NCBI GenBank assembly: GCA_964594415.1
Contig: CAZQLQ010000003.1
Coordinates: forward strand, 6,224 to 70,223
Source of the DNA: an uncultured Candidatus Saccharibacteria bacterium
GTDB lineage: Bacteria > Patescibacteriota > CPR2 > UBA1875 > CAIMLA01
DNA: 64,000 nt
Reading direction: 5' to 3'
The translations under genes were made by a program, and so were the position numbers. Every line of letters starts with the position of its first letter. The first letter of the stretch is position 1. Below, in pieces: positions 6,576 through 43,168 of the stretch. The notes beneath the pieces were generated by a model. That model saw nothing but the letters and a program-made list of their open reading frames with translations. It was not told the DNA's origin and did no database searches.

Positions 6576-8468
6576 TTATTCTTCTTTTTTATCTTCTTCA
6601 ACGACTTCGCCTTCTACCGGTCCTTCTTCTGCCTTCGTCTCTTCTGCAGCGCCTTCACCAGACTGTGCTGGTTGCTCATACATCGTTGCTCCGACTTTCT
6701 GGATTGCTTCAAATAGGGCATCATATGACTTTTGAATAGAATCTTTATCATCACCGTCTTTGAGTTTTTTCAATTCTTCAACTTTTGCTTCAACGTCTTT
6801 TTTGTCTTCTTCTTTTGCCTTATCCCCGGCGTCTTTCAAAGTCTTTTCTGCAGTATAAATCAAGGCGTCTGACATATTTTTGAGGTCAACAAGTTCTTTT
6901 CTCTTCTTGTCTTCTTCAGCATGTGCTTCAGCATCTTTTTGCATTCTCTCTATTTCTTCTTTTGAAAGTCCGCTTGACGCAGTGATGGTAATCTTTTGTT
7001 CCTTACCTGTTGCTTTGTCTTTGGCGGTTACGTGTACAATTCCGTTTGCGTCGATGTCAAATGTTACTTCAACTTGCGGAATACCCCTAGGTGCAGGTGG
7101 GATACCATCTAGAATGAATCTTCCTAACGACTTATTGTCAGCCGCAAATTCACGTTCACCCTGGAGAACATTGATCTCCACCGAGGTTTGGTTATCTGCT
7201 GCAGTGGAAAATACTTGTGATGCGCTGGTTGGGATAGTAGTATTCTTTTCTATTAGCTTCGTAGAAACACCTCCCAATGTTTCAATTCCAAGAGAAAGGG
7301 GAGTAACATCAAGAAGAAGAACGTCCTTTACTTCTCCGCCAAGCACCCCTCCTTGAATTGCTGCTCCAACAGCCACAACTTCGTCTGGATTTACACCTTT
7401 AAGCGGTTCTTTACCAAAAAAGTCTTTAACAGCTTCTTGAACCTTTGGCATACGAGTCATACCGCCGACTAAAATTACTTCGTTGATATCTGTTACTTTC
7501 AGGCCAGCATCCGCAAGAGCGGTTTTGCACGGTTCAATCGTCTTCTTGATCAAATCGTCAACTATAGTTTCAAGCTTTGCCCTTGTCATCTTATAAGTGA
7601 GGTGCTTAGGACCGCTGCTATCAGCTGTAATGAATGGGATATTGATTTCTGTTTCCATCGTGCTTGATAGCTCAATTTTTGCCTTCTCGGCAGCTTCTTT
7701 AAGCCTCTGTAGAGCCGCTGTGTCAGCTTTCAAATCAATTCCTTGCTCCCTCTTAAACTCATCGACAAGCCAATCAATTATTCTCTGGTCAAAGTCATCA
7801 CCACCAAGATGAGTATCTCCATTTGTGGATTTAACTTCAAAAACACCATCACCTAGCTCAAGGATAGAAACATCAAACGTTCCGCCACCAAGATCGTAAA
7901 CAGCTACTTTTTCTTCTTTTTTCTTATCAAGCCCATAAGCAAGTGCTGCTGCGGTAGGTTCATTAATAATTCTTTTTACGTCCAGCCCAGCAATTTTTCC
8001 AGCATCTTTTGTCGCTTGACGCTGAGAATCGTTAAAATAAGCAGGCACAGTAATTACCGCCTCCGTAACTTTTTCACCTAGATAAGCTTCGGCATCTGCT
8101 TTCAACTTCGAAAGAATCATAGCGGAAATTTCGGCCGGACTATAATTCTTATCTCCCATCTTTACAGTTACCCCACCGTTTTCTTTTTCAATCTTGTAAG
8201 GAACAAGCTCGATATCCTTTTTTACTTCCGGATCATTGTAACCGCGACCAATCAATCTTTTTACTGAAAAAATTGTATTTTCAAAATTAATCACTGCTTG
8301 TCTTTTTGCGATTTGCCCAACAAGCCTCTCTCCGCTTTTAGAAACCGCCACAATTGAAGGCGTTGTGCGATTTCCTTCTGCATTTGCAATTACCTTCGGT
8401 TCTCCGCCTTCCATTACAGCCATGGCTGAGTTTGTTGTCCCAAGGTCAATTCCTATTATTTTTCCCAT
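6576..8468 (-). CDS. dnaK: Chaperone DnaK (Hsp70)
   Basis: [10 protein letters not shown] and DLGGGTFD signatures. The start is adjusted to the ATG at 8468 ([10 protein letters not shown]), which has the SD AAGGAG six nt upstream; the track ORF begins at an in-frame upstream Met. Confidence 0.95.
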
Positions 8469-8521
8469 ATTTACTCCTTTCTTAAATTGCAACTTCTTAT
8501 GTCACAAAGAAAAATTTTATA

Positions 8522-8995
8522 CTAATCCTTGATATTATTTACAATAACTTTTGCTGGACGAATTAATTTTCCATTTAGCAAATATCCAGCTGCTTCTTCT
8601 TTTACAATCTCATTATTTTTATAATTTTCGTCTGAAACTTCATTTAAAGCTTCGTGAATATTTGGGTCAAAAGCCTTTCCTTCTGATTCTATTTTTTCAA
8701 CTCCATTTGCTGACAATATTTGCTCTAACTGTTTCTCGATTGCCTGAATTCCAACTGTCCAGTTATTCCCCTCGAACTCTGCGGGAACATGCCTTGCTGC
8801 AAGTGAAAAGTTATCCATTACCGGCAAAATCTCTTCTATTATCTTTGCCTGAGCGAACTTAATGAAGTTAACTCTATCTTCTTCATTTCTTCGCTTGTAG
8901 TTTAAAAAGTCTGCCTGTGTTCTTTGCAACATCCCTTTTAGTTCTTCGATCTCGGCTAATAATTTTTCTTGTTTTTCTTCTTTTGGTTTCTTCAT
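8522..8995 (-). CDS. grpE: Nucleotide exchange factor GrpE
   Basis: GrpE coiled-coil plus beta-domain sequence. The start is adjusted to MKKPKEE at 8995, which has a GAGGA SD and avoids overlap with the hrcA stop. Confidence 0.85.
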   Translation of the reverse strand: MKKPKEEKQEKLLAEIEELKGMLQRTQADFLNYKRRNEEDRVNFIKFAQAKIIEEILPVMDNFSLAARHVPAEFEGNNWTVGIQAIEKQLEQILSANGVEKIESEGKAFDPNIHEALNEVSDENYKNNEIVKEEAAGYLLNGKLIRPAKVIVNNIKD

Positions 8996-18974: not shown

Positions 18975-19150
18975 TTGTATCATCCTCGCACACGCGGGGA
19001 TCTACCTATATCTCTGCTTCGCCCAGCACTTTTTATAGTGCTGTGGTCATCCCGTCCGACGGCTCCGATGAGTTCGTGTCGGACTCCGTCGGAGAGCGAA
19101 GTCGAAGAATCTCATAATTTCAACCTCATTGACCTTGAGGTCTTTTTTTG
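18975..19150 (+). ncRNA. Candidate structured small RNA or tRNA-Asn leader (GC-rich, multiple hairpins, ends with a terminator)
   Basis: Local GC is well above the background. Nested inverted repeats (cagcact/agtgctg and gtccgacgg/ccgtcggag) end in the hairpin gacct-tga-ggtc plus T7 at about 19128..19150. No credible CDS is present; the track ORF here overlaps the tRNA. Confidence 0.25.
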
Positions 19151-19179
19151 CTATAATTTCATAGTTGAAAGCGTAATAT

Positions 19180-20676: not shown

Positions 20677-21303
20677 ATGAAATTATTCTTATCTTCAATC
20701 GGTTTTGATGAAAATGTCGCCAAAGAGTTAGATGAACTTATATCTAAAAAGCGAGTTGATGTTTCCATTGGAATTATCACCAATGCTAAGAAGTATAAAT
20801 CAAAGGAAGAATTCAAAGAATCGATAACGAGAAATACAAAATATGTCGCTGATTTAGGTTATTCAAAGATTCGCTATATTGATTTAGATAATTACGGAGA
20901 CAAAGATTTAGAATGCGATGTTTTGTATATTTTTGGAGGAAACTCTTTTTACCTTCTGGAAGCAATTAAAAGAAGCGGTTTTGATAAGGCTCTAAAGAGA
21001 ATCGTGGATGAGGGTAGAATAATTGTTGGACAAAGTGCTGGTAGTATTATTTTTTCACCAAGTATTGAAATTGCTGGCAATGATTTTTGCTATGATCAAA
21101 ATATCTTGGGATTAAAAGACTTAGACGCACTTAATATAGTGGATTATGCAATTCTCCCACATTATGAAGATAAATATGTAGCGGGCGTTAGAAAACTTCG
21201 CGAAACTGTTGGTTATGACATTTACGCCTTAAAAGACGGGCAAACAATTTTCTTAAACGGTAACGAAACCACTTATTTGGGCGGGGAACCTGCTATCTTT
21301 TAA
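20677..21303 (+). CDS. Peptidase S51 family (dipeptidase E / cyanophycinase-like) paralog 1
   Basis: GGNSFYLLEAIKRSG and GQSAGSII (Ser nucleophile in the SAGS context) match Peptidase_S51. Confidence 0.7.
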   Translation: MKLFLSSIGFDENVAKELDELISKKRVDVSIGIITNAKKYKSKEEFKESITRNTKYVADLGYSKIRYIDLDNYGDKDLECDVLYIFGGNSFYLLEAIKRSGFDKALKRIVDEGRIIVGQSAGSIIFSPSIEIAGNDFCYDQNILGLKDLDALNIVDYAILPHYEDKYVAGVRKLRETVGYDIYALKDGQTIFLNGNETTYLGGEPAIF

Positions 21304-21427: not shown

Positions 21428-22069
21428 ATGAAGATCCTCCTAACATCTAGCGGAATAGATAGGGCTGTTTACGCTAAAATAAGACGCTTACTTGGTAATA
21501 GAGCAGACATTTCGGTTGGCTTTCTGAAATCGTCTATAAAATATATGAACAATCAGCCAGCCTTGGAAAATAGACTTAGCGAAATTTCTAATAATTTGTT
21601 ATCTTTGGGATTTAAAAAAGCTGATGGTTATTATCTACCAAAATATACAGCAGGACACTTGGCAGTAGCATTAGATAAATATGATGTGATTTATATATGC
21701 GGTGGGAACACCTTTAATCTCTTAAATGTCATTAAAATCGCTGGTTTTGAAAAAGTTTTGGACGACCTCAAGGATAAAAAGATTATCGTTAGTGAAAGTG
21801 CTGGAAGTTATGTTTTGTGCCCAAACATAGAAATGGCAAACTGGAAGGGGTCAAACAGCAACGAGGTTGGTATAGATGACTTAACGGGTTTAAATTATGT
21901 TCCCTTTCTAGTGTCGGCTCACTACTCGGATGAAGTTGCTGGAAAAATTAAAGTTGGTGCAAAGAAATCGGGACTAACGACTTATGCACTTAGAGATGGA
22001 CAGGCAGTCTTTTATCAGGATGGGAATTTAGAATATTTGGGTGGTGAGCCCAAGGTTATTAAGGCTTAG
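21428..22069 (+). CDS. Peptidase S51 family paralog 2
   Basis: GGNTFNLLNVIKIAG and SESAGSYV. A tandem paralog of the preceding gene, with the intergenic region duplicated along with it. Confidence 0.7.
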   Translation: MKILLTSSGIDRAVYAKIRRLLGNRADISVGFLKSSIKYMNNQPALENRLSEISNNLLSLGFKKADGYYLPKYTAGHLAVALDKYDVIYICGGNTFNLLNVIKIAGFEKVLDDLKDKKIIVSESAGSYVLCPNIEMANWKGSNSNEVGIDDLTGLNYVPFLVSAHYSDEVAGKIKVGAKKSGLTTYALRDGQAVFYQDGNLEYLGGEPKVIKA

Positions 22070-22670: not shown

Positions 22671-24362
22671 ATGAAGGAAAAAGAGAGAAAGCCCAACAAT
22701 AAAAATAAAAGCAAAAAGAAACCTTCATCACATAAGACTGTCTTTTCATTTCTGAATTTAGGTTTTATTTTCCATCTTGTTAAGTCTTACCACAAATACA
22801 AAAAATATTTTTTTCTTGGCATAGCAAACATTTTGTTTATTGTAGTAGTTGCAGTAATTGTGTTTTGGGGAAAACCAATATTGTGGTTTGTCAAGAGCTC
22901 ATCTTACCAGAACATAACATATCCTTATGCATCTGTTTTAGGAAATAATGTTGGTGGACTAAATTCAGAAGAGCTTGATACTAAATTAGCAGAGATAAAA
23001 TTAGAATTTGAAAGTAAAAAAGTTACATTCACTAATAATGAAAGCCAATGGATATTTACTTACAACGAACTGGGGGTTAGATTTGATAGTGATGTGACCA
23101 AACAAGCAATTTTGGAATTTAATAAATACAATATAAGAAACAAGTACAAACTAATTATTGGCGACATTAGTCCTCAGGTTATACCGTCAATATCAATCAT
23201 TAACGATAAATGCGTTAATTCTCTTTCAACCGTATCAATTCCTGAAACTGCGCCTCAAAATGCCGCCATATACTTTGACCAAGAGTTAAAAATAAAATCT
23301 GAACAATCCGGCACAAGTTATAATCCAGCTTCAAACTGTAAAGAACTATCAACTATTTTAGCTTCAAGCCGTACTAAAGCAAAAATTAGTCTAGACACCG
23401 TCGCTGCCAACTTAACCAAGGCCGACCTTGAACCGGTGCTGCCTCAGATTCAAGGCATCACTGGAAAACCGTTAACTTTATATAGTGGGTCTTACAAAAG
23501 AATTTTGCCATCAGAACAGTTGCTAGGCCTGCTAGAAATCTCTAAAAGCGACTCCGGGATCCAGGTTGGCTGGTCTTCAGCAAGGCTCGATGAACTTATT
23601 AATGGAATAGCATCAAAGGTGAATTACAGTAATAGTAGCCCGGTAGTTGGAAGTTGTGAATATTTGATTAGTAACGGCGGATACTGGTTGGACAAAGCTG
23701 CTACAAAGAAATTTATACAGAGCCTTGGCCCAAACAGCTCTCGATCCTACACTCTACCAGTTATTTATCATGAAGCCGTCATTGGTAAACGTTCGCCGGT
23801 GAAAAGCGGCACTCGAGGTACTGTTTATTTAACATTTGACGACGGTTTATTGTATGGTAATCAAATTATGAATTATGCTGCTTGTTACGGCATAAAAATT
23901 ACTTTCTTTGAAATTGGTTCTAGAGGCTTTACTGATGCCGTAGCTCTCCGCAGAGCCGTTAATGAAGGCCATGCTGTTCAATCACATGGATATGATCACG
24001 CTGCGACTAACTATGGCGAACACAGCTATGAATGGCAATTTAATGATATTAAAAAATCAATTGATACAATTATAAGCATCACGGGCATTCGGCCAACATA
24101 TTTTCGCCCACCTGGTGGAAATAGAAGTACTGACACATACACAGCTGCAAATAACAACGGGCTCAAATTGATACTGTGGGGTGCTTCTTCTGCAGATACA
24201 GCTGGAATCAGCTCAAGCGCAATTTGCTCTAATGTTTTGAATCATGCTTTTTCGGGGGCTAGTGTTTTAATGCATTCAACAAAACAAACTACTGCCAACG
24301 CAGTGCCATGCATTATTGAAGGACTGGCCGCAAGAGGTTACAGTATGCAAGCTTTAAGATAA
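22671..24362 (+). CDS. Polysaccharide deacetylase (NodB domain) with an N-terminal TM anchor and a large uncharacterised N-terminal domain
   Basis: NodB motifs TFDDG, HAVQSHGYDH and YFRPPGG in the C-terminal 200 aa. N-terminal Lys-rich tail plus a TM helix. Confidence 0.75.
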   Translation: MKEKERKPNNKNKSKKKPSSHKTVFSFLNLGFIFHLVKSYHKYKKYFFLGIANILFIVVVAVIVFWGKPILWFVKSSSYQNITYPYASVLGNNVGGLNSEELDTKLAEIKLEFESKKVTFTNNESQWIFTYNELGVRFDSDVTKQAILEFNKYNIRNKYKLIIGDISPQVIPSISIINDKCVNSLSTVSIPETAPQNAAIYFDQELKIKSEQSGTSYNPASNCKELSTILASSRTKAKISLDTVAANLTKADLEPVLPQIQGITGKPLTLYSGSYKRILPSEQLLGLLEISKSDSGIQVGWSSARLDELINGIASKVNYSNSSPVVGSCEYLISNGGYWLDKAATKKFIQSLGPNSSRSYTLPVIYHEAVIGKRSPVKSGTRGTVYLTFDDGLLYGNQIMNYAACYGIKITFFEIGSRGFTDAVALRRAVNEGHAVQSHGYDHAATNYGEHSYEWQFNDIKKSIDTIISITGIRPTYFRPPGGNRSTDTYTAANNNGLKLILWGASSADTAGISSSAICSNVLNHAFSGASVLMHSTKQTTANAVPCIIEGLAARGYSMQALR

Positions 24363-24372
24363 AAAATAATTA

Positions 24373-25317
24373 ATGGTAAGAATAATGAATAATATTAGCA
24401 GTCATTTTAAAAATACAATATCAAAAAGAGTATGGATATTATTAGCAGTATTCATAATAATATTAATTTCGACTTCGGTCTTTTTATTTTCTAAAATAAG
24501 CAAACAACAACCGCATCAAACGACTACTACGACATCTTTAACAACAGTCACCTCAAGCACTACTATCACCACAACAACGACAACCACTACTACAACAACA
24601 AGTACGTCCACGACTAAGGCTCCCTCAACTACTACAACTACTAAATTTAACGTGATGAACCTAAATAACAACGTAGTAAATTGGAGCTATGCATACCCAT
24701 CAAGCTTCATAACCAAATACAATGGTTATTGGAATTTTGGTGACAACAATCTATATCTAACGTTTGATTGTGGCTATGATTACAACAATCTTGCTTCTAG
24801 TATCATGGATATCTTGGAGACCAAAAACGTAAAAGCAGTATTCTTCGTAACGGGTGCTTTTATGAATTCAAGGCCTGATCTGATAAACAGGATGATTGCC
24901 GAAGGACATATCGTAGGAAATCACTCGTATGGCCACTTGAATCAACCACAAAACTTAACTTCCTCCACGGACACAGTTATTGCCGATATTAAAGCCTGGG
25001 AAAATAAATATTTTGCTATAACGGGAACATCTCCTTACAAACATTTATTCCGCCCTCCGGCCGGAGCTATTTCCGAGCGCTCGATGGCCCTAATGAATCA
25101 ACTTGGCTACAAAAGCTTACTTTGGGCAGTTGCATACAGGGATTGGGATCCCGCAAATCAACCTACTGAGGCAGAAGCATGGACAGCATTACGTAACTAT
25201 ACGTCGGCAGGTGATATTATTCTTCTTCACGGAACCTCACAAACAAGCACAAATATTTTAAGTGCCTATATAGACGAATATCGATCTAAAGGTTATGAGT
25301 TTAGACTACCGAATTAA
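24373..25317 (+). CDS. Polysaccharide deacetylase (NodB domain) with a poly-Thr linker
   Basis: TM helix, then TTTTTSLTTVTSSTTITTTTTTTTTTTSTSTTKAPSTTTTT, then the NodB motifs (TFDCGYD, HIVGNHSYGH, FRPPAG). Confidence 0.75.
   Translation: MVRIMNNISSHFKNTISKRVWILLAVFIIILISTSVFLFSKISKQQPHQTTTTTSLTTVTSSTTITTTTTTTTTTTSTSTTKAPSTTTTTKFNVMNLNNNVVNWSYAYPSSFITKYNGYWNFGDNNLYLTFDCGYDYNNLASSIMDILETKNVKAVFFVTGAFMNSRPDLINRMIAEGHIVGNHSYGHLNQPQNLTSSTDTVIADIKAWENKYFAITGTSPYKHLFRPPAGAISERSMALMNQLGYKSLLWAVAYRDWDPANQPTEAEAWTALRNYTSAGDIILLHGTSQTSTNILSAYIDEYRSKGYEFRLPN
24514..24652 (+). repeat. Low-complexity ACT/ACA-rich coding repeat encoding the poly-Thr linker
   Basis: Runs of actact/acaaca codons inside the second deacetylase gene. 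Confidence 0.7.
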
Positions 25318-33315: not shown

Positions 33316-36300
33316 CTATTTAATTTCTTTTTCAAGATCGACTAATATTTTACGAGATTCTGCATTATTTATTAATTTATCTGCCTTTAGAAGCTCAAAA
33401 TAACGATTTCCCTCGTCATATATATAGACATAATCTTCTGCCTCTTCTAGCTTTAGTTTTCCGAGTAATGATAAAAACTCTTTACTAATTGCATCTTCGG
33501 TACTGTTTTCTTTTTTTGATAAGGATACAAGATAATTGTTCAGTAACAAATCCGTATTATGCCTAAAAATTTTCGGATTTTCTGGATTTAACTTTTCTGG
33601 AGATTTCCCCGTCCCAGCACCGGTGTTAGTTTCTGCCGCTTGTTGACCGCTCGGCGTGCTTGACTGTTCAGAAGAACCGTCTTCTGATGGCTTCTCTTTC
33701 TCCCATGAAACCTTTATATCTTCTGAGTTTTTATTTGTATTTCTTTCCCTTAAGGCCAATATAGGTTCCACATTTATTAACGTAAAGACGCCTTCAGGCG
33801 TAACGCTATAATCATCATCTTTAAGACCAGTGGTTTTAAGGAATTCTGCGAATTCTCCAGATTTGCCTAGAATCTCCTCTTTTGAAATATTATTGTTAAC
33901 CCAGTTGCTTTCTGAAGTAATAATCTTATCTGTTTCGCTAGTTTCTTCTTTCTCAACATTGGGTCCCGTACCCTCGCCTGTTCCTACCGGCTCAGGGCTT
34001 TCTCCCGATGGACCTTCTGGAGTTGGCGTTGGGGTAACTGGGGGAACTGGTTCTTCTTTCTTCCCCACATTCTCTAGCGGGTTTCTACGGAATGGCATAA
34101 TAGGAACATAGAATTCGCTATCTCTAGGCATCTCAAGAGTATAATCAAAAGCTTCTGGATTCGTTACCGTTACAGTATCGACACCCTTTCCTTCAGCTGT
34201 CGCTAACATTCTAACCAGATCATGGATCTGTCCGTCTTCTCCTTTTCGTCCGCCTATAACCTGAGCTACTTCGGCAAAGCGACCCTTAAAGACCACCTGT
34301 CCATCGTGGTTTTCAAAAAACATCTGTGCGAGAGGGCTATCTTTTGGAATAATTGCCTGCCCGTTTTTATCGAACTCAACTGAAGCTACATAGCGCTGCG
34401 TTTCTTCCGAAAGCGATAGGTTAAGCTTCAGATTATGGTTCTTTATTTCCTCAAGGTAATCCGCGCTCAACTCATCATGAAATGAGCCGTCAGATGTCAT
34501 ATGAGATACATCATAAACAAAGTTGCCGTTAGCATCTATGCCTAATCTTAACTCTTTTTCATTTAGTTCATAAATTCCGGAGGTATTTTCGTCATACCAT
34601 CCTCGCGGATCCCTAAATACTCTTTCAAATTCTGGTCTGTGTGATATTGCATCAATATCGGTATAAGTAGTGACTTCTCCCGACCCCTCTACTGGAGCAG
34701 TAATTAAATTGATACCTTCTTTATGAAGCATTTCTACCGTTGAAGGCGATAGAGAGCCATCGTTGTTGAATATAATGTGATCTGCTACCAGTTCGCCGGT
34801 CATTTTATTTGTTAAACTAAGTGTTCCTTCTTGATTTTTGATCAGTGCAAGTCCTTCAGGTAGATTAATTGTCGTGGATCTCCCTACTGAAACTTGATTT
34901 AAGACATCAGGATTTACTCCCAATGTTTTATCGCCTTCAAGAGAAAATGCGGTTCTATGGAAAAATGAAGTAAAATCACTATCGCCAATATAATCCGCAA
35001 ATTCATGAACAGCCCCCCCTACGATGCCCATAGTTGTAGCTGCTATAAAGCCAGCTTTCACGGCCTCTATTTTCTTAAATCTGTCTCGTTCTCCTATTTT
35101 TTGCGTATTTTCGCCCAACAAACCAGCTTTGGCATTATTAATCTTATTTCTTAACTCATTGGTGAAATTACTGCCTTCTGGAAGATTTTCAATGAGCGCT
35201 TCTTCAGCTTTGGCAACAGCTTCGTCTAAAGCATTTCTCTCTCTTTGGTTAAATATTCTTGAATAAGTAATATAAGGCGCGTCATATTCGTCGCTAGCTT
35301 CTATTCTTGCCCTTATATCAACAACTTTTTCCGTCAAAATCTGCCTCAGCTCAGGACTTAATTCTCCCTTACTTAGAATCTCGTTAATTTCTGTAACCGA
35401 AGAATTGGAACTTTTTCCTTCTACTCTGAACTGTTCCATTCTTTCGCGACCCTTAGAGCCAGATAAAATCTCTCCTCCTGCCTCCATTTCACGAGAGTGC
35501 ATAGCAAAGTCTCTCTCAACCTCCTTGCCCTTTCTGGCGACACCGTAAGCAAAGCCTAATAACGATGAGGCTCCGAGTGTTCCTATTTTTGCAGCGTTGC
35601 TTCTAACTAATCTTTCAGTAGTGAAAGTAGCTGCGGAATAAATCAATCCAGCCGCTATGCCTATAGTTGCAGGCTCTAGTGCAGAACTCCAAAATCTGCT
35701 TTGCTGTAGCCCTTCAACAAATTTGTCAAAACCGTTTAAATTTTCTTTGGCTCTTAAATTGCCTCGAACATTGCCTAAAATAACCGAGAAATCCATGTCT
35801 AGTTCGGAAAGAGCTTTTTCGTGATCTTGACTTCCTTTGATACTATCGGCAACTTCAAGAAGATTGTCAACGATATCTTCTTTTTTAAACATTAATTTCC
35901 TATCTTTAATATATGCGGAGTCCAGTAGTTCAAACTTTATTTTCTCAAAAGCGTTTTCGTCTATTTCGCCATTCACATAATGTTTTATAAGATCTTTAAT
36001 GCTGTTGTTAAAATCCTCGTTTGCTTCTTCCCTGTTTTCGCCATAGTGTAGAGCCTCGTCGGCACTTGTAGCCAATCTTTCAGCAGCAGCTTTTCTGTCC
36101 TCTTGAAACTCTTCATTCTTATCAAGTGAACCGCTGTTAATTTGCTCTCTATATTTGTTGATGGCCTTTTGTCTTTCATATTCCTCAAATACTCGCCAAT
36201 ACATTCTTCCAAAGATACCTCTTATGCCCTTCTCTCTTATTTTATTTTGTTCTTTGGTAATTTCTTTGTCTGCATAATATCTTGCCACATCTTCATTGAT

Positions 36301-36915
36301 TTCTTTGGCATCAACAGCATAAAGAGGGGTTTTTTTAGCCTCATCCTCGGCTTCGTTACTTTCGGCTTCCTCTAGTTTCGTTGTTGGGTTTTCATTATCT
36401 TGCCCCTGCTGTTGTTTATCTTCTGATTGCTGCTTATTGGTGTTTTCGATGCCTTGCTCTTCCTGAAGACGATCTATAAAAGTTTGCATACGCTCACCCT
36501 GAAGTTCGTCTTCCGTTTTTTGAGTATTGGAATTACTTGATGACTGCTCTTCCTGAAGACGATCTATAAAAGCTTGCATACGCTCACCCTGAAGTTCGTC
36601 TTCCGTTTTTCCGACAGCGGAAGTATCAGACAGTTTCTCCTCGGGAACGGGTTGCGCATAACCTTCGCTTACCGGATCAATATCCTCGTAATCAATAGGT
36701 TGGTAGCCATAATGTTCACTTGATTTATTATCTTCATCTTCGTCAATATAGTCTATTGGCTTATATCCCTTTTCTTTCTCATTGGCAATACCATAGGCAA
36801 TCTTAATATATTCGTCGCCTTCAGGCTCTGGTAAAATATTTTTTACCAGATCTTCATTTGATGGAGCTTTTTGCTCACCAGAAAAGGCCCCTGGGTTATT
36901 ATTCATCTCGCTCAT
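33316..36915 (-). CDS. Giant hypothetical protein (1199 aa): acidic N-terminus with GYxPIDY repeats, a 30-aa tandem repeat, mid-protein TM helices, a large C-terminal domain and a PVTPTPTPEGP linker
   Basis: One uninterrupted ORF. Hydrophobic helices at roughly residues 430-470 and 640-660. A Pro/Thr-rich linker near residue 960. No recognisable catalytic motif and no N-terminal signal peptide. Confidence 0.6.
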   Translation of the reverse strand: MSEMNNNPGAFSGEQKAPSNEDLVKNILPEPEGDEYIKIAYGIANEKEKGYKPIDYIDEDEDNKSSEHYGYQPIDYEDIDPVSEGYAQPVPEEKLSDTSAVGKTEDELQGERMQAFIDRLQEEQSSSNSNTQKTEDELQGERMQTFIDRLQEEQGIENTNKQQSEDKQQQGQDNENPTTKLEEAESNEAEDEAKKTPLYAVDAKEINEDVARYYADKEITKEQNKIREKGIRGIFGRMYWRVFEEYERQKAINKYREQINSGSLDKNEEFQEDRKAAAERLATSADEALHYGENREEANEDFNNSIKDLIKHYVNGEIDENAFEKIKFELLDSAYIKDRKLMFKKEDIVDNLLEVADSIKGSQDHEKALSELDMDFSVILGNVRGNLRAKENLNGFDKFVEGLQQSRFWSSALEPATIGIAAGLIYSAATFTTERLVRSNAAKIGTLGASSLLGFAYGVARKGKEVERDFAMHSREMEAGGEILSGSKGRERMEQFRVEGKSSNSSVTEINEILSKGELSPELRQILTEKVVDIRARIEASDEYDAPYITYSRIFNQRERNALDEAVAKAEEALIENLPEGSNFTNELRNKINNAKAGLLGENTQKIGERDRFKKIEAVKAGFIAATTMGIVGGAVHEFADYIGDSDFTSFFHRTAFSLEGDKTLGVNPDVLNQVSVGRSTTINLPEGLALIKNQEGTLSLTNKMTGELVADHIIFNNDGSLSPSTVEMLHKEGINLITAPVEGSGEVTTYTDIDAISHRPEFERVFRDPRGWYDENTSGIYELNEKELRLGIDANGNFVYDVSHMTSDGSFHDELSADYLEEIKNHNLKLNLSLSEETQRYVASVEFDKNGQAIIPKDSPLAQMFFENHDGQVVFKGRFAEVAQVIGGRKGEDGQIHDLVRMLATAEGKGVDTVTVTNPEAFDYTLEMPRDSEFYVPIMPFRRNPLENVGKKEEPVPPVTPTPTPEGPSGESPEPVGTGEGTGPNVEKEETSETDKIITSESNWVNNNISKEEILGKSGEFAEFLKTTGLKDDDYSVTPEGVFTLINVEPILALRERNTNKNSEDIKVSWEKEKPSEDGSSEQSSTPSGQQAAETNTGAGTGKSPEKLNPENPKIFRHNTDLLLNNYLVSLSKKENSTEDAISKEFLSLLGKLKLEEAEDYVYIYDEGNRYFELLKADKLINNAESRKILVDLEKEIK
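36456..36610 (-). repeat. 90-bp in-frame tandem duplication (two copies) encoding TEDELQGERMQ(A/T)FIDRLQEEQ
   Basis: gctcttcctgaagacgatctataaaag(t/c)ttgcatacgctcaccctgaagttcgtcttccgttttt occurs at 36456..36520 and again at 36546..36610 (period 90 bp). Confidence 0.8.
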
Positions 36916-38607: not shown

Positions 38608-38679
38608 AACCTTTTTTTTATTTTTCTTTTTTTGATATAATTTCTATAAGTGAGAACTAATATTAAAAAGGAGGGTAAA

Positions 38680-38931: not shown

Positions 38932-38950
38932 TCTTTATAAAGAGAAAAAA

Positions 38951-38978
38951 AGAACGTATTAAGATACGTTCTTTTTTT
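38951..38978 (+). terminator. Rho-independent terminator
   Basis: agaacgtat-taag-atacgttct followed by ttttttt. Confidence 0.65.
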
Positions 38979-39018
38979 GATTGACTTATCATAAAAATAG
39001 GTATAATTTAAGATTATT

Positions 39019-39783
39019 ATGATTTCTGATTATATTTATCCAGACATAAAAGATAAGCTAGTAAACACCTTTATCGAGCAGTATGAGGTCGAGGAAGGTG
39101 GTTGGGAGAAAGAAGAAACCTCCACTCTTGAAATTGCAGAGAAGTATCTTCGTATTTTTAACGGCTCGAATAGTTCTTTTCTGGATGCCGGATGCGGTAA
39201 TGGTAGATTGATTAAGGTTTTTGAAAAATATTTCTCTACAGTAATTGCCATAGACCCTGATGAATCAAGGCTAAAAGAAGCACAGGAAAATATTAAGGAA
39301 TTCGGTATTCAGACCAAAACAACAACTTTGAGATCCTCGATCGAGGATTTTTCTTTTGAACATAAGTTCAACACCATATTATGTGCATATGTTTTACACA
39401 TTGTCAGCAACGCTGCTGCTGAATCTATCATAAAAAAGCTGTTTAATATGCTGGAAGAAGATGGAATACTACTCTTGCTAACCTCGTGGTCACCGGAGGT
39501 TTATGATAAATACTCAAAGGCTTATTTTGAAAAATCTAGGTTTGTCGACAAAGAAATTAATATCACAGAGTTTGAAGAGCTCATAAAGGCGGGTAAGCCA
39601 AATATATTGCCTATACACTCATTTTGCACGGATCATCTAAAGAGAGTTATAGACTCAAATGGTTTCGAACTAGTAAACATCAAGCCTTTTCATAGTACTA
39701 AAATTCATAATAATCCAGTAGACATCATGTTAGTCTTAAGAAAACCCAAAAAATCTCCGTATACCTATAGTTATAATTCATAA
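39019..39783 (+). CDS. Class I SAM-dependent methyltransferase
   Basis: Motif I LDAGCGNGRL and the motif post-I acidic residue (AIDPDE). Confidence 0.7.
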   Translation: MISDYIYPDIKDKLVNTFIEQYEVEEGGWEKEETSTLEIAEKYLRIFNGSNSSFLDAGCGNGRLIKVFEKYFSTVIAIDPDESRLKEAQENIKEFGIQTKTTTLRSSIEDFSFEHKFNTILCAYVLHIVSNAAAESIIKKLFNMLEEDGILLLLTSWSPEVYDKYSKAYFEKSRFVDKEINITEFEELIKAGKPNILPIHSFCTDHLKRVIDSNGFELVNIKPFHSTKIHNNPVDIMLVLRKPKKSPYTYSYNS

Positions 39784-39806
39784 TAAGAACTTCAAAGGGA
39801 GGATCG

Positions 39807-40319
39807 ATGGACGCCATTAACAATATAATGACAAGGCGAAGTATTCGTGTGTTCAATGAAGAGCAAGTACCAGAATCTAAGATAGAAATAATCCTAAAGG
39901 CTGCTATGCAAGCACCAACAGCAAAAAATGTTCAGCCTTGGCATTTTGTAATCATAAAAGACCGAGAAACTCTTTCAAAGATTGCGAGTTTTCACCCGAC
40001 TGCACCAATGGCTGCAAATGCGCCGCTCGCTATAACAATATGCGGAGACACAACCTCAAAAATAGCACCTGATTGCTGGGTTTTAGACTGTGCAGCTGCC
40101 TCCGAAAACTTGCTGCTTGCAGCACACGCGATCGGTCTCGGAGCTGTTTGGACAGCAAATTATCCGATTAAAGACATTCAAATTTTTATGAAGAAGCTAC
40201 TGAATTTGCCTGAAAACATTGAGGCACATTCTACAATAATTCTCGGGTACCCAGGCCATCCCTACAATCCTCCCAAAGAGCGTTACAACTACGAAAGAAT
40301 TCATCAAGAAAAATGGTGA
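39807..40319 (+). CDS. Nitroreductase family protein
   Basis: MTRRSIRVF...QPWHFVIIKD, the classical nitroreductase/NADH oxidase fold signature; 170 aa. Confidence 0.75.
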   Translation: MDAINNIMTRRSIRVFNEEQVPESKIEIILKAAMQAPTAKNVQPWHFVIIKDRETLSKIASFHPTAPMAANAPLAITICGDTTSKIAPDCWVLDCAAASENLLLAAHAIGLGAVWTANYPIKDIQIFMKKLLNLPENIEAHSTIILGYPGHPYNPPKERYNYERIHQEKW

Positions 40320-40335
40320 AATATTAACAAAAACC

Positions 40336-40365
40336 TTAAATAAGAATTTGTTTTTATGCTATAAT
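40336..40365 (+). promoter_or_regulatory. Extended -10 promoter (TTAAAT-18-TGcTATAAT) giving a near-leaderless transcript for the NuoF-like gene
   Basis: TGCTATAAT at 40357..40365 ends 8 nt before the ATG at 40374. Confidence 0.4.
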
Positions 40366-40373
40366 TTTTCTAT

Positions 40374-41378
40374 ATGGAAGAACTACTTCAAAAAATCAAA
40401 AAGGCAAAACTTGTGGGTAGAGGGGGTGCAGAATTTCCAACTTATAAGAAGTGGGAAATGGTACGTTCTGCTCTTAGTGATAAAAAGTTTGTTATATGCA
40501 ATGCTAGCGAAGGCGAAATTGGTATATATAAAGATATCTGTATTCTAAATAATTACCCTGAGAGAGTCATGGACGGCATCATTCTAGCCCTAGACTTTTT
40601 GGAAGCCAACGAGGCCTATATAAACATCAACAAAAAATACTGGAAACAAGTCAAACAAAAATTTACACCAATTATTAATAAATATGAAATTTTAGGATAC
40701 AAAATAAATATTTTCGAAGAAGATCCCAGCTATATCGGCGGTGAAGAAACGGCTCTACTAAATGCAATCGAGGGACACAGGACTGAACCCAGACTGAAAC
40801 CACCTTTTCCGTCTGAAGTAGGACTGCACGGCCATCCAACGCTTATCCATAACGTAGAAACGCTCTATAACATCTCCTTAGTTAATGATGGATTATATAA
40901 GAATAACCGTTTTTATTGTATATCTGGTAAGGTAAAAAAACCTGGCGTGCACGTACTTTCAGAAAATCTGACTATTGCGGAAATATTAGATAAAACTGGA
41001 AATACTCCAAAATTTAATTTTTTTGTTCAAATTGGCGGAAGTGCTAGTGGACTAGTGCTGAACCAAGACCAGATAAAAAATCAGAGAATGATTGGAGCAG
41101 GTTCAATAGATGTTTATCCGATTTCAACTCCCCCTCGCTATATGTTTGACAAATGGTTTGATTTTTACCAAAAAGAGAGTTGTGGGAAATGCACCCCTTG
41201 CCGCGAAGGAACTTTTCAGCTTTATAAGATGGTAAAGGAAGAATGTGAATCCGACTTGAAATCAATGCTTGAAATAATAGAACTAATGGAAACCGCCTCT
41301 TTCTGTGCCTTAGGCAGGTCAATAGCAATTCCCGTAAAAAGTTATATCAAAAATGTTTTAAATTACAGAAAAAAGTAA
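40374..41378 (+). CDS. NuoF / HydB-like NADH-binding flavoprotein subunit (short, 334 aa)
   Basis: GRGGAEFPTYKKW NADH-site motif, GGEETALLNAIEG FMN-site motif, and the C-terminal 4Fe-4S CGKCTPCREG. Lacks the N- and C-terminal extensions of bifurcating HydB. Confidence 0.7.
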   Translation: MEELLQKIKKAKLVGRGGAEFPTYKKWEMVRSALSDKKFVICNASEGEIGIYKDICILNNYPERVMDGIILALDFLEANEAYININKKYWKQVKQKFTPIINKYEILGYKINIFEEDPSYIGGEETALLNAIEGHRTEPRLKPPFPSEVGLHGHPTLIHNVETLYNISLVNDGLYKNNRFYCISGKVKKPGVHVLSENLTIAEILDKTGNTPKFNFFVQIGGSASGLVLNQDQIKNQRMIGAGSIDVYPISTPPRYMFDKWFDFYQKESCGKCTPCREGTFQLYKMVKEECESDLKSMLEIIELMETASFCALGRSIAIPVKSYIKNVLNYRKK

Positions 41379-41379
41379 T

Positions 41380-43092
41380 ATGAAAAAAGAATATATACAA
41401 ATTGACGGTAAAAAGTATGAGTTCAGGACAGGAGAGTCTGTTCTTCAGGTCGCTATCCGAAATAACATTGATATCCCTCACTTCTGCTATCATGAAGATC
41501 TGCAGACAGAGGCACGATGCAGAGCTTGTTTAGTCGAAAACCTAAAAGACAATAAAATTGTTACTTCCTGTACCCTACCTGCCAGGCATTTATTAAAAGT
41601 TTCGACAAAAGGAAAAACGTTAGAAAAATTAAGAAAAGAAAACCTAGAATTACTTCTTGCCAGCCATAAAGAAAATTGCTCCAATTGCAAGGCTGGATAC
41701 TTCTGCAAAACAGCAGAGGAAATGAAGAAATACAAAATCTCAGGAACAAAGTATAAAAAACAAAAAATTAATAAACCAGTTCATAAGATGGCGACTGCTG
41801 CAGAAATAGATCCAAATACCTGTATCGCCTGCAATAAATGCGTACAAGTATGCCAAAGAGTTGGCATAGGCTTCCTTGAATTAAAGGAAAAGGGATCGCA
41901 TACACATTCTAGCTATAACGATAACGCGAGTATTGATTGTATATATTGCGGACAGTGCACACTACATTGTCCCGTAAATGCAGCCCGTGAACAGTCTCAA
42001 ATAAAAGAAGTCGAGGCAGCAATAAAGGATAAGAAAAAAATAGTAATCGCCCAAGCGGCCCCCTCTATCCGTGCTTCTATCGGGGAAGAATTTGGGTGCA
42101 AACCAGGAAAAGTACTCACAGGACAGATGTATACCGCTATGAGAATGCTGGGCTTTGATAAAATCTTTGATGTTAATATGGGTGCAGATATTACAACCAT
42201 CGTTGAGGCAAAAGAGCTTGTTGAAAGAATAAAGACAGGTAAAAATCTGCCAATGTTTACTTCTTGTTGCCCGGGATGGGTAAAATTTGTTGAATTTTAT
42301 CACCCTGAATTAATCCCAAATCTGACTACCTCAAGGTCCCCCCAAATTCATGCAGGTGCTGCATATAAAACATGGTGGGCAAAAAAGGAGAATATAGATC
42401 CCAAAAACATAGTAGTAGTTTCTATCATGCCTTGCACTTCAAAAAAATATGAAGCAAAAAATCCAGATTTGAAGGTTGAAGGAAATTTTCCCGTTGATTA
42501 TGTCCTCACAACCCGTGAATTCGCATCATTGCTTAAGAAGAATAATATCAATTTGCCAAAACTAACTCCTAGCAAGGTTGATATTTATGGTGAATATTCA
42601 GGCGCTGCTGCTATTTATGGGGCATCCGGAGGCGTAATGGAGTCAGCTCTTAGAACTGCTTACTTTGATATGACCAGAGATGAACTGAAAAAAGTTGACT
42701 TTGAAACCGTAAGAGGAATGGATGGCATTAAAAAAGCTGAAGTAAAAATTGGGAACAGAACCATCAAAGTAGCTGTCGTGACGACACCCAAAAACGCTCG
42801 CTTAATTATCGGGGAACTAAAAGAAAACCCGAAGGCCTATGACTATATAGAAGTCATGGCTTGCCCTGGAGGTTGTATCGGTGGGGGTGGACAGCCTATT
42901 CCTACTACTGACAAGATTGTTATGGAAAGAATAAAAGCCCTTTACCAAATTGACTCCAAATCTAAGATTAGAAAAGCACACCTCAATCCGGTAGTTGAAG
43001 ATTTTTTCAGGGATTATGTCGGTAAACTGCCCAGGGAAAAACAGATCGAAATTCTTTACAGAGGATACTCACCAAAGAAAAAATTTGAATAG
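41380..43092 (+). CDS. hydA: [FeFe]-hydrogenase catalytic subunit HydA (monomeric CpI-like architecture)
   Basis: N-terminal 2Fe-2S ferredoxin cysteines, two 4Fe-4S motifs (CIACNKCVQVC and CIYCGQCTLHCP), and H-cluster motifs L1 FTSCCPGW, L2 MPCTSKKYE and L3 EVMACPGGCIGGGGQP. Confidence 0.85.
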   Translation: MKKEYIQIDGKKYEFRTGESVLQVAIRNNIDIPHFCYHEDLQTEARCRACLVENLKDNKIVTSCTLPARHLLKVSTKGKTLEKLRKENLELLLASHKENCSNCKAGYFCKTAEEMKKYKISGTKYKKQKINKPVHKMATAAEIDPNTCIACNKCVQVCQRVGIGFLELKEKGSHTHSSYNDNASIDCIYCGQCTLHCPVNAAREQSQIKEVEAAIKDKKKIVIAQAAPSIRASIGEEFGCKPGKVLTGQMYTAMRMLGFDKIFDVNMGADITTIVEAKELVERIKTGKNLPMFTSCCPGWVKFVEFYHPELIPNLTTSRSPQIHAGAAYKTWWAKKENIDPKNIVVVSIMPCTSKKYEAKNPDLKVEGNFPVDYVLTTREFASLLKKNNINLPKLTPSKVDIYGEYSGAAAIYGASGGVMESALRTAYFDMTRDELKKVDFETVRGMDGIKKAEVKIGNRTIKVAVVTTPKNARLIIGELKENPKAYDYIEVMACPGGCIGGGGQPIPTTDKIVMERIKALYQIDSKSKIRKAHLNPVVEDFFRDYVGKLPREKQIEILYRGYSPKKKFE

Positions 43093-43140: not shown

Positions 43141-43168
43141 AAAAAACCGGCCGAAAGGCCGGTTTTAT
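43141..43168. terminator. Bidirectional rho-independent terminator between convergent hydA and hppA
   Basis: aaaaccggcc-gaaa-ggccggtttt. Confidence 0.7.

Follow-up and report, generated by a model that had tools for sequence, protein, structure and literature searches.

A short NuoF-type flavoprotein paired with an [FeFe] hydrogenase in Patescibacteria: a probable two-subunit, non-bifurcating NAD(P)H-linked enzyme

A dimeric NADH-dependent [FeFe] hydrogenase, HydAB, has already been characterized from Syntrophus aciditrophicus (SYN_01369/01370; Losey et al., 2020, PMC7311640). It is encoded by two genes, one for the catalytic subunit HydA and one for a NuoF-type flavoprotein, HydB, which has no C-terminal ferredoxin-like bifurcation domain, carries a Tyr near the flavin mononucleotide (FMN) and lacks the GGPSG motif; the predicted electron flow runs from NADH to H2 without ferredoxin. 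An N-terminal HydC part (NuoE-like, with a [2Fe-2S] cluster) is fused to this HydB, giving a protein of 66 kDa, and a NuoE-like γ module is kept in Syntrophomonas wolfei, S. aciditrophicus and Nyctotherus ovalis (as a fusion). The present study concerns a hydB–hydA gene pair located in a 64 kb stretch of DNA from an uncultured Candidatus Saccharibacteria bacterium (contig CAZQLQ010000003.1, positions 6,224 to 70,223; the whole stretch is referred to as the window), in which HydB is a protein of 37 kDa with no NuoE-like part. The closest characterized relatives of the pair are Syntrophus HydAB and Syntrophomonas Hyd1ABC, both of which keep the NuoE module.

Several other systems share parts of this architecture. 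The HydB subunits of S. wolfei Hyd1ABC and of the A6 cluster on the Peptoclostridium acidaminophilum plasmid EAL2_808p (locus L083) are also short and comprise Complex1_51K and NADH_4Fe-4S parts only. The plasmid cluster encodes a HydA of the same M3 type, 41% identical to that of the window (tblastn), together with a NuoE of 172 amino acids and a HydB of 417 amino acids. However, NuoE/HydC is a separate gene there, the order is hydA–hydC–hydB instead of hydB–hydA, and its HydB, at 33% identity, is no closer to the window protein than is NuoF of complex I. The best structural and sequence matches of both subunits are to the bifurcating HydABC enzymes of Thermotoga maritima, Acetobacterium woodii and Thermoanaerobacter kivui (7p5h, 7q4v and 8a6t), which share the core wire from FMN through [4Fe-4S], the HydA [2Fe-2S] cluster and a [4Fe-4S] chain to the H-cluster, whereas HydC, the N-terminal [2Fe-2S] cluster of HydB, B3/B4, the Zn site, Ala/Glu232–Met234 and GGPSG are all missing from the window pair. 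In comparison with NuoE–NuoF–NuoG of complex I, HydB is the counterpart of the NuoF core, the N-terminal third of HydA matches the N-terminus of NuoG, and the same geometry of FMN and of clusters N3 and N1b is expected; unlike complex I, the pair has no NuoE and so no cluster N1a. Relative to Nqo1 of Thermus thermophilus, HydB is shorter by 50 residues at the N-terminus, a region that contacts NuoE, and by 22 at the C-terminus, and several loops are missing.

The hydB–hydA pair and its relatives

The two genes are the last of four open reading frames (ORFs) at 39019–43092, all on the forward strand as originally predicted. The first of the pair, hydB (40374–41378, +), encodes a minimal NuoF-type flavoprotein of 334 amino acids (37 kDa), and hydA (41380–43092, +) encodes an M3 (CpI-type) group A [FeFe] hydrogenase catalytic subunit of 570 amino acids; a gap of 1 nucleotide (TAA-t-ATG) separates the stop codon of hydB from the start codon of hydA. 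HydB contains only two Pfam domains, PF01512 Complex1_51K (E 2e-35) and PF10589 NADH_4Fe-4S (E 2.5e-19), within which the motifs GRGGA, CNASEGE..KD, SYIGGEETA, KPPFP and NVET and the [4Fe-4S] ligands C270, C273, C276 and C311 are found. It begins at the FMN domain and ends about eight residues past the [4Fe-4S] four-helix bundle, without an N-terminal [2Fe-2S] extension, a C-terminal 2×[4Fe-4S] domain, a NuoE-like domain or Zn-site Cys/His residues. The original description of the partner as a short NuoF/HydB-like flavoprotein with intact NADH, FMN and 4Fe-4S sites, but without the 2Fe-2S extension, is therefore retained. The AlphaFold model of HydB is compact (mean predicted local distance difference test score 86.8, predicted template-modelling score 0.85), and its superposition on every solved NuoF-type chain gave query-normalized template-modelling scores of 0.83–0.89, with target-side values of 0.48–0.71.

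This protein belongs to a large and uniform family. It scores 222.6 bits against the NuoF equivalog TIGR01959, for which the cutoff is 558.65, and the best 120 database clusters are 317–357 amino acids long, 53–70% identical to HydB and composed of the same two domains. In a search of representatives at 50% identity, some 25–30 clusters scored above 210 bits, followed by a drop to 200 bits or less, where canonical NuoF/HydB proteins of 400–760 amino acids appear. Identity within the family is 45–70%, whereas HydB is only 28–34% identical (about 145–172 bits) to T. maritima HydB, A. mobile HydB, FdsB, Nqo1 and the A6-type HydB of P. acidaminophilum alike; this even distance from all of the reference groups indicates that the short HydB family nests in none of the known HydB groups, and clustering of the protein with standard HydB, which would have made the locus ordinary, was not observed. 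Both termini are conserved in an alignment of 25 short HydB sequences, and among 80 sequences the four [4Fe-4S] Cys residues, Y120, K53/D54, G17/G18, K26/W27, N43/E46/E48 and N160/E162/T163 are invariant. The word 'truncated', which had been applied to this partner, is misleading, since 334 amino acids is the conserved full length of the family.

Relatives were collected from GTDB, scanned with one genome per species (144 relatives, of which 80 loci were kept for analysis), and from JGI metagenomes (331 further relatives, 80 loci kept); the 160 fetched loci correspond to about 144 non-redundant loci and about 1.74 Mb of sequence in all. The 80 genome loci come from Gracilibacteria, Peregrinibacteria/Peribacteria, Paceibacterota, Uhr-, Woese-, Falkow-, Campbell- and Saccharibacteria and Microgenomates, and include one complete TM6 genome as well as metagenome-assembled genomes (MAGs) with doubtful proteobacterial labels. 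Among the closed genomes with the pair are OY760935.1, OY970181.1, OY760177.1, CP011212.1 and those of Ca. Peribacter riflensis. In 79 of 82 genome loci and 67 of 80 metagenome loci, the gene directly downstream of hydB, in the same orientation, is hydA; the exceptions are mostly contig ends. The short hydB–hydA pair is a lineage-wide architecture in Patescibacteria (the candidate phyla radiation, CPR) and TM6-like bacteria, and not a quirk of a single genome.

Two natural proteins, P0365 (918 amino acids) and P0366 (885 amino acids), are head-to-tail fusions in which a short HydB is joined to HydA at its [2Fe-2S] domain, with no HydC part. Such fusions constitute Rosetta-stone evidence for a direct HydB–HydA complex that does without a third subunit. 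In a further fusion, P0368 (702 amino acids), a short HydB is followed by a Pro/Thr-rich linker and a [NiFe]-hydrogenase small-subunit/NuoB-like domain (PF01058), which suggests that the minimal diaphorase serves other hydrogenases too. In addition, five loci carry hydB without a downstream hydA despite sufficient room (L075, at 7826–8866, L131, L145, L147 and L156), and the ORF that follows hydB in L075 (8841–9539, 232 amino acids) shows no Fe–S motifs; the module may therefore act as a general diaphorase.

The pair was also seen in MAGs titled Pseudomonadales, Gammaproteobacteria, Sedimenticolaceae, Psychromonas and Bdellovibrionales (L012, L019, L028, L029, L037, L048, L051, L053, L057, L060, L063–L065, L068, L070, L072, L073 and L079–L082). 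The G+C content of these loci is mostly 29–41%, with a few at 44–52%, and many of their HydB sequences cluster with TM6- or CPR-labelled ones. On account of this clustering and the low G+C content the proteobacterial labels look unreliable, and the presence of hydBA in Proteobacteria was not accepted on the strength of MAG titles. Separately, no HydB match was assigned to the sources of LepA relatives 77–80% identical to the LepA of the window, which weakly suggests that hydBA is patchy among close relatives.

HydA was predicted to be a genuine catalytic subunit, and its cofactor ligands agree with this. Its Pfam domains are Fer2_4, a partial NuoG-type His-[4Fe-4S] motif, two Fer4, Fe_hyd_lg_C (PF02906, E 2e-88) and Fe_hyd_SSU. 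The three H-cluster motifs, defined here as L1 TSCCPxW, L2 MPCxxKxxE and L3 ExMACxxGCxxGGGQP, are all present, as FTSCCPGW, MPCTSKKYE and EVMACPGGCIGGGGQP, and the CpI-like accessory clusters have their ligands: C36, C47, C50 and C64 for [2Fe-2S], H96, C100, C103 and C109 for the [4Fe-4S] cluster with a His ligand, and two CxxCxxCxxxC(P) motifs for the ferredoxin-like clusters. This domain and cluster layout is identical to that of CpI of Clostridium pasteurianum, a monomeric, ferredoxin-dependent M3 enzyme which, unlike HydA, has no flavoprotein partner. HydA scores above the cutoff of TIGR02512, the NCBIfam model for group A (456 against 405.95 bits), and its best NCBIfam model is NF040763, 'NADH-dependent [FeFe] hydrogenase, group A6', on which it falls below the cutoff (636.8 against 765 bits). 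Judged by its scores against T. kivui HydA (8a6t, 468 bits), A. woodii HydA (7q4v, 460 bits) and CpI (404 bits), its nearest relatives in sequence are HydA subunits from multimeric enzymes that are NADH-linked.

Across 69 HydA sequences, little or no variation is seen in the Cys ligands, the [2Fe-2S] ligands and both ferredoxin-type clusters. The same holds for most of the H-cluster motif and proton-path positions (APS.R/E236, E276/E279 and SPQ). The ligands of the His-[4Fe-4S] cluster are lost in nine of the 69; the proteins flagged at the H96/C100/C103/C109 positions are those of L023, L024, L036, L046, L049, L052, L054, L055 and L056, several of which are labelled Peregrinibacteria/Peribacteria. 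The alignments point to purifying selection on both HydB and HydA. A sensory (HydS-like) hydrogenase was rejected, since PAS and other signalling domains are missing and the Cys that acts as proton relay in TSCCP is conserved.

Electron path and alternative readings

The absence of a NuoE/HydC gene next to hydB had been noted in the original prediction and was found to extend well beyond the window. No PF01257/NuoE-like protein was detected by Pfam among about 45 ORFs of the window, which contains no nuo genes, and a tblastn search with a NuoE reference (E ≤ 10) combined with a search for Cx4C..Cx3C gave no match in the window or in the 80 genome loci. At E ≤ 1e-5, there were no NuoE matches within 10 kb of hydBA across the 160 loci. 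With a minimal NuoF core as HydB and no adjacent HydC, the locus departs from the characterized trimeric bifurcating hydrogenases, as had been proposed.

The β subunits of bifurcating enzymes are marked by extra Fe–S domains, Ala/Glu232 and Met234 (T. maritima HydB), a Phe near FMN and GGPSG in the SLBB region, whereas non-bifurcating β subunits have no extra Fe–S domains, Thr/Ser at 232, Lys/Ser/Ala at 234, a Tyr near FMN and no GGPSG (Losey et al., 2020, PMC7311640). Furthermore, the C-terminal B3/B4 domain of HydB is present in all characterized bifurcating enzymes and absent from non-bifurcating ones, and HydC has been given a likely role in bifurcation (Furlan et al., PMC9499530). In the short HydB family, the equivalent of position 234 is Lys in all 80 sequences, and all 80 have a Tyr where the T. 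maritima sequence GAGAFVCGEE has Phe (F312 by the present count, printed as 367 in PMC7311640); GGPSG is replaced by GG(S/G)ASG. The equivalent of position 232, which is Thr or Ser in S. aciditrophicus-type enzymes, is Ile in the window and Val, Leu or Ile in 47, 27 and 3 of the 80 sequences, respectively. Thus, none of the features of bifurcating HydABC (group A3), namely HydC, the N-terminal [2Fe-2S] cluster and C-terminal B3/B4 domain of HydB and the residue signatures, are found at or near the pair. Among the non-bifurcating features, the absence of extra Fe–S domains, Lys at 234, Tyr near FMN and the lack of GGPSG are seen, while Thr/Ser at 232 and a γ (NuoE-like) subunit are not. The short-HydB hydrogenase is best read from these signatures as non-bifurcating; it resembles the Syntrophus and Syntrophomonas enzymes in its presumed working, yet is no strict member of that group.

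Taken together, the product of hydB–hydA is quite likely to be a minimal NAD(P)H-linked [FeFe] hydrogenase of two subunits that does not bifurcate electrons and is conserved across Patescibacteria and TM6-like bacteria. In such an enzyme HydB, as a 37 kDa NuoF core, would bind FMN and accept hydride from NADH, and single electrons would pass to its sole [4Fe-4S] cluster, the equivalent of cluster N3 of complex I. In HydA the electrons would then enter at the N-terminal [2Fe-2S] cluster, which is equivalent to N1b, and travel along the two ferredoxin-like [4Fe-4S] clusters to the H-cluster, where protons would be reduced to H2; the path would be reversible, and no NuoE/HydC module would be involved. 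A fermentative, respiration-less cell would in this way re-oxidize its NADH as H2. We infer a physical HydB–HydA complex in this organism, the use of NADH rather than NADPH, the catalytic direction and the maturation of the H-cluster. A report on five complete Peribacteria genomes, which mentions 'one subunit of a Fe-hydrogenase' with the other subunits not identified (PMC4736985), is counted in favour of a two-subunit enzyme. No description of the CPR hydB–hydA pair or of its maturases was found in the literature searched, the coverage of which was incomplete.

A number of points weigh against this assignment. The family as a whole is so far known from sequences. To our knowledge, every solved or characterized NuoF-type protein has a NuoE-like partner or domain, and a NuoE-free NuoF would be unprecedented; a distant NuoE partner may be encoded elsewhere in the genome. 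The residue equivalent to position 232 fits neither class of enzyme (Ala/Glu if bifurcating, Thr/Ser if not), so that the nucleotide site is no textbook match. Motif screens found no HydE/F/G-like gene near any of the roughly 144 loci. Finally, NADH-driven H2 production is thermodynamically unfavourable unless the H2 pressure is as low as a few to tens of Pa (PMC7311640), and this restriction to low H2 pressure implies dependence on H2-consuming neighbours.

Of the other readings, the one that survives best, although it is unlikely, is that HydA is mainly a ferredoxin-dependent, CpI-like enzyme with HydB as an accessory or alternative input, or that the physiological direction of the pair is uptake, from H2 to NAD(P)H, perhaps with NADPH in place of NADH. 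HydA retains the full set of CpI-type clusters including the His-ligated one, which is the presumed entry point for ferredoxin in CpI and which joins neighbouring protomers in HydABC (PMC9499530). Fermenting CPR bacteria possess pyruvate:ferredoxin oxidoreductase and have to recycle their ferredoxin (PMC4736985), the characterized HydAB is reversible (PMC7311640), and the residue at position 51 in the nucleotide site of HydB is atypical. However, the strict co-occurrence of hydB and hydA, together with their fusion, argues that HydB is an obligatory partner. The His-ligated cluster is dispensable, as the nine sequences without its ligands show, whereas the [2Fe-2S] cluster is invariant, and this pattern fits electron entry from HydB via [2Fe-2S].

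It is highly improbable that the pair is part of an ordinary electron-bifurcating HydABC (A3), with HydC and perhaps other parts encoded elsewhere in the genome. The similarity of HydA to the bifurcating T. kivui and A. woodii subunits, which exceeds that to any other, would be expected of such an enzyme; an adjacent nuoF-like gene is, by the usual convention, enough for a group A HydA to be placed in A3, as phylogeny cannot subdivide group A (PMC8421398). The view of NuoE in this particular genome covers 64 kb. Nevertheless, a bifurcating enzyme is difficult to reconcile with a HydB that has no B3/B4, N-terminal [2Fe-2S], Zn-site Cys/His or GGPSG, that begins beyond the first 50 residues of Nqo1 and that is encoded without NuoE within 10 kb at about 144 loci, or with natural HydB–HydA fusions that carry no HydC part.

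A reading in which HydA is never matured, and the pair has some other redox or Fe–S function like that of eukaryotic Nar1-like proteins, draws on the apparent lack of maturases. The prediction that HydE/F/G are absent from the window was confirmed, no ORF of at least 200 amino acids with CX3CX2C, no HydF-type motif and, by Pfam on about 45 ORFs, no HydE/F/G being detected in its 64 kb; likewise, no HydE/F/G-like gene was recognized in about 1.7 Mb around the loci. The screen consisted of the motifs CX3CX2C and CxHx(35–65)HCxxC, followed by NCBIfam for eight candidate ORFs from the genome loci, while radical S-adenosylmethionine (SAM) candidates from the metagenome loci were judged from motif context alone. 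Of the eight, five were RlmN, MtaB, PflA or HemW, two were generic radical-SAM proteins and one (L038:3345–4307) had no match. Annotated HydE/F/G beside plasmid-borne hydA genes were sought as references, and none was adjacent. If three maturase genes were placed at random in each genome of about 1 Mb, the 1.35 Mb of flanking sequence should contain roughly four of them, and the probability of finding none would be about 0.02, a rough estimate that is suggestive only.

An unmatured HydA is nevertheless very improbable. The Cys ligands that contact the [2Fe] subcluster, as well as most of the motif and proton-path positions, are conserved in the 69 HydA sequences, which is not expected of a protein without an H-cluster. 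Moreover, archaeal [FeFe] hydrogenases from maturase-less genomes showed activity once reconstituted. HydEFG is missing from most archaeal genomes that encode [FeFe] hydrogenases, and for archaea without maturases an unknown route or scavenged precursors have been proposed (PMC11216029).

Some radical-SAM proteins do occur near the pair. The L038 candidate is a protein of 320 amino acids with PF04055 only, encoded about 340 bp downstream of hydA, and a generic radical-SAM protein of 290 amino acids recurs upstream of hydB, at 4–6 kb in L050 (3220–4092; TM6-labelled), L066 (4905–5807) and L137 (5082–5954) and at 3.8 kb in L136 (1263–2135). None of these is HydE or HydG by NCBIfam.

Lastly, an assembly or annotation artefact that left hydB as a truncated pseudogene, as its length of about 100 amino acids less than NuoF and about 290 less than bifurcating HydB might suggest, is refuted by the size of the family (at least 120 clusters of equal length, besides the GTDB species representatives and metagenome matches), by its uniform length and conserved termini and by the confident, compact predicted fold.

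Neighbouring genes and sequence signals

A gene for a polytopic membrane protein of about 170 amino acids neighbours hydBA, in the same orientation, in 42 of 80 genome loci and 45 of 80 metagenome loci, and usually lies 2–115 bp upstream of hydB (for example, L007:9264–9917, L012:9480–9989, L042:9495–9992, L066:9453–9983 and L076:11394–11897); there is no such gene in the window. The protein has a weak match to the energy-coupling factor (ECF) S component (PF12822, E 9e-6), and its database labels are 'HymD subunit' (one UniRef member being '[Fe] hydrogenase, HymD subunit'), 'ECF transporter S component' and 'riboflavin transporter'. The name derives from the database label and refers to the hymABCD Fe-only hydrogenase cluster of Eubacterium (Peptoclostridium) acidaminophilum, which the related loci resemble in that about half of them carry a HymD-like protein, whereas the window does not. 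The hym clusters presumably also carry the NuoE-like HymA. The simplest guess is that the HymD-like protein supplies HydB with FMN or riboflavin; more generally, this ECF-S-type protein could be an importer of some cofactor or precursor, for which riboflavin/FMN would be the mundane option.

Upstream of hydB on the same strand lie, as predicted, a class I SAM-dependent methyltransferase of 254 amino acids (39019–39783, +; PF13649, E 2e-15, PF13847 and PF08241), for which no NCBIfam family reached its cutoff, and a small nitroreductase-family flavoprotein of 170 amino acids (39807–40319, +; PF00881, E 6e-26), the ORF of which is preceded by the strong ribosome-binding site GGGAGG. Their membership in the hydrogenase system was rejected. 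Homologues of the methyltransferase were found near hydBA in none of the 160 loci and of the nitroreductase in one (L013), and in view of this lack of conserved linkage both are regarded as incidental neighbours.

The four-gene cluster is bounded on its 5′ side by a terminator-like hairpin at 38945–38978 (a 15-pair stem flanked by A and T runs, not assigned to a strand), which closes an upstream small ORF. It is followed by a promoter-like sequence, TTGACT–15 nucleotides–TATAAT, at 38981–39007 (+), 11 nucleotides ahead of the methyltransferase ATG; this is a sequence motif only and was read by eye, the spacer range of the promoter scanner being 16–18. On the 3′ side, a GC-rich hairpin, AAAACCGGCC-GAAA-GGCCGGTTTT, at 43143–43166 lies between hydA and a convergent H+-pyrophosphatase gene and is terminator-like on both strands.

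An extended −10 promoter had been predicted ahead of the NuoF-like gene. The consensus motif TGCTATAAT is indeed present at 40357–40365 (+), 8 nucleotides ahead of the hydB ATG, with no Shine–Dalgarno sequence between the two, and is a possible internal promoter that would give a leaderless or near-leaderless hydBA transcript. However, the frequency of extended −10 motifs in the window (seven observed, 4.2 expected) is not significant on its own. A second TGnTATAAT, at 38633–38641, also stands exactly 8 nucleotides ahead of a start codon (ORF 38650) and lacks a Shine–Dalgarno sequence; this pair with equal spacing hints at leaderless transcripts. Other copies occur 22 nucleotides ahead of tRNA-Asn (19149–19157) and at further intergenic spots.

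The rest of the window contains housekeeping and cell-envelope genes, including those for LepA, the F-type ATP synthase and the H+-pyrophosphatase. Its LepA is 79% and 67% identical to proteins named 'Patescibacteria group bacterium', and the nearest relatives of HydB bear Patescibacteria names as well. A protein of 1199 amino acids encoded at 33316–36915 (−) is rich in Glu, Lys and Asn, has internal repeats ('TEDELQGERMQ.FIDRLQEEQ' occurs twice) and predicted membrane segments and has no assigned family; small ORFs follow its gene on the same strand. Two tandem pairs of paralogues were observed, of Peptidase_S51 genes (20677–21303 and 21428–22069) and of polysaccharide deacetylase genes (22671–24362 and 24373–25317), and three tRNA-Met(CAT) genes lie within 12 kb (2299, 4494 and 12015).

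Implications

Comprising two subunits with a combined mass of about 100 kDa and a single flavin, and free of bifurcation parts, the proposed hydrogenase would be the smallest natural NADH-linked one. It would provide a clean natural comparator for determining which parts of HydABC are needed in electron bifurcation, and a natural NuoE-free NuoF would allow the much-debated part played by cluster N1a/NuoE in NADH modules of the complex I type to be approached directly. A bolder claim, that an active [FeFe] hydrogenase operates in CPR and TM6 bacteria with neither a NuoE/N1a module nor the canonical HydE/F/G maturases, is rather doubtful. If it were true, a NuoF-type flavoprotein would be stable without NuoE while wiring NADH to an Fe–S chain, and assembly of the H-cluster would take an unknown route or draw on scavenged precursors. 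That linked maturases appear to be missing carries the archaeal puzzle over to bacteria.

Metagenome surveys routinely file a hydrogenase with an adjacent nuoF-like gene as 'group A3, bifurcating'. This label is probably incorrect for CPR and TM6 genomes, as are the energetics derived from it. An NADH hydrogenase that does not bifurcate needs very low H2, and the enzyme proposed here would tie these episymbionts to H2 consumers.

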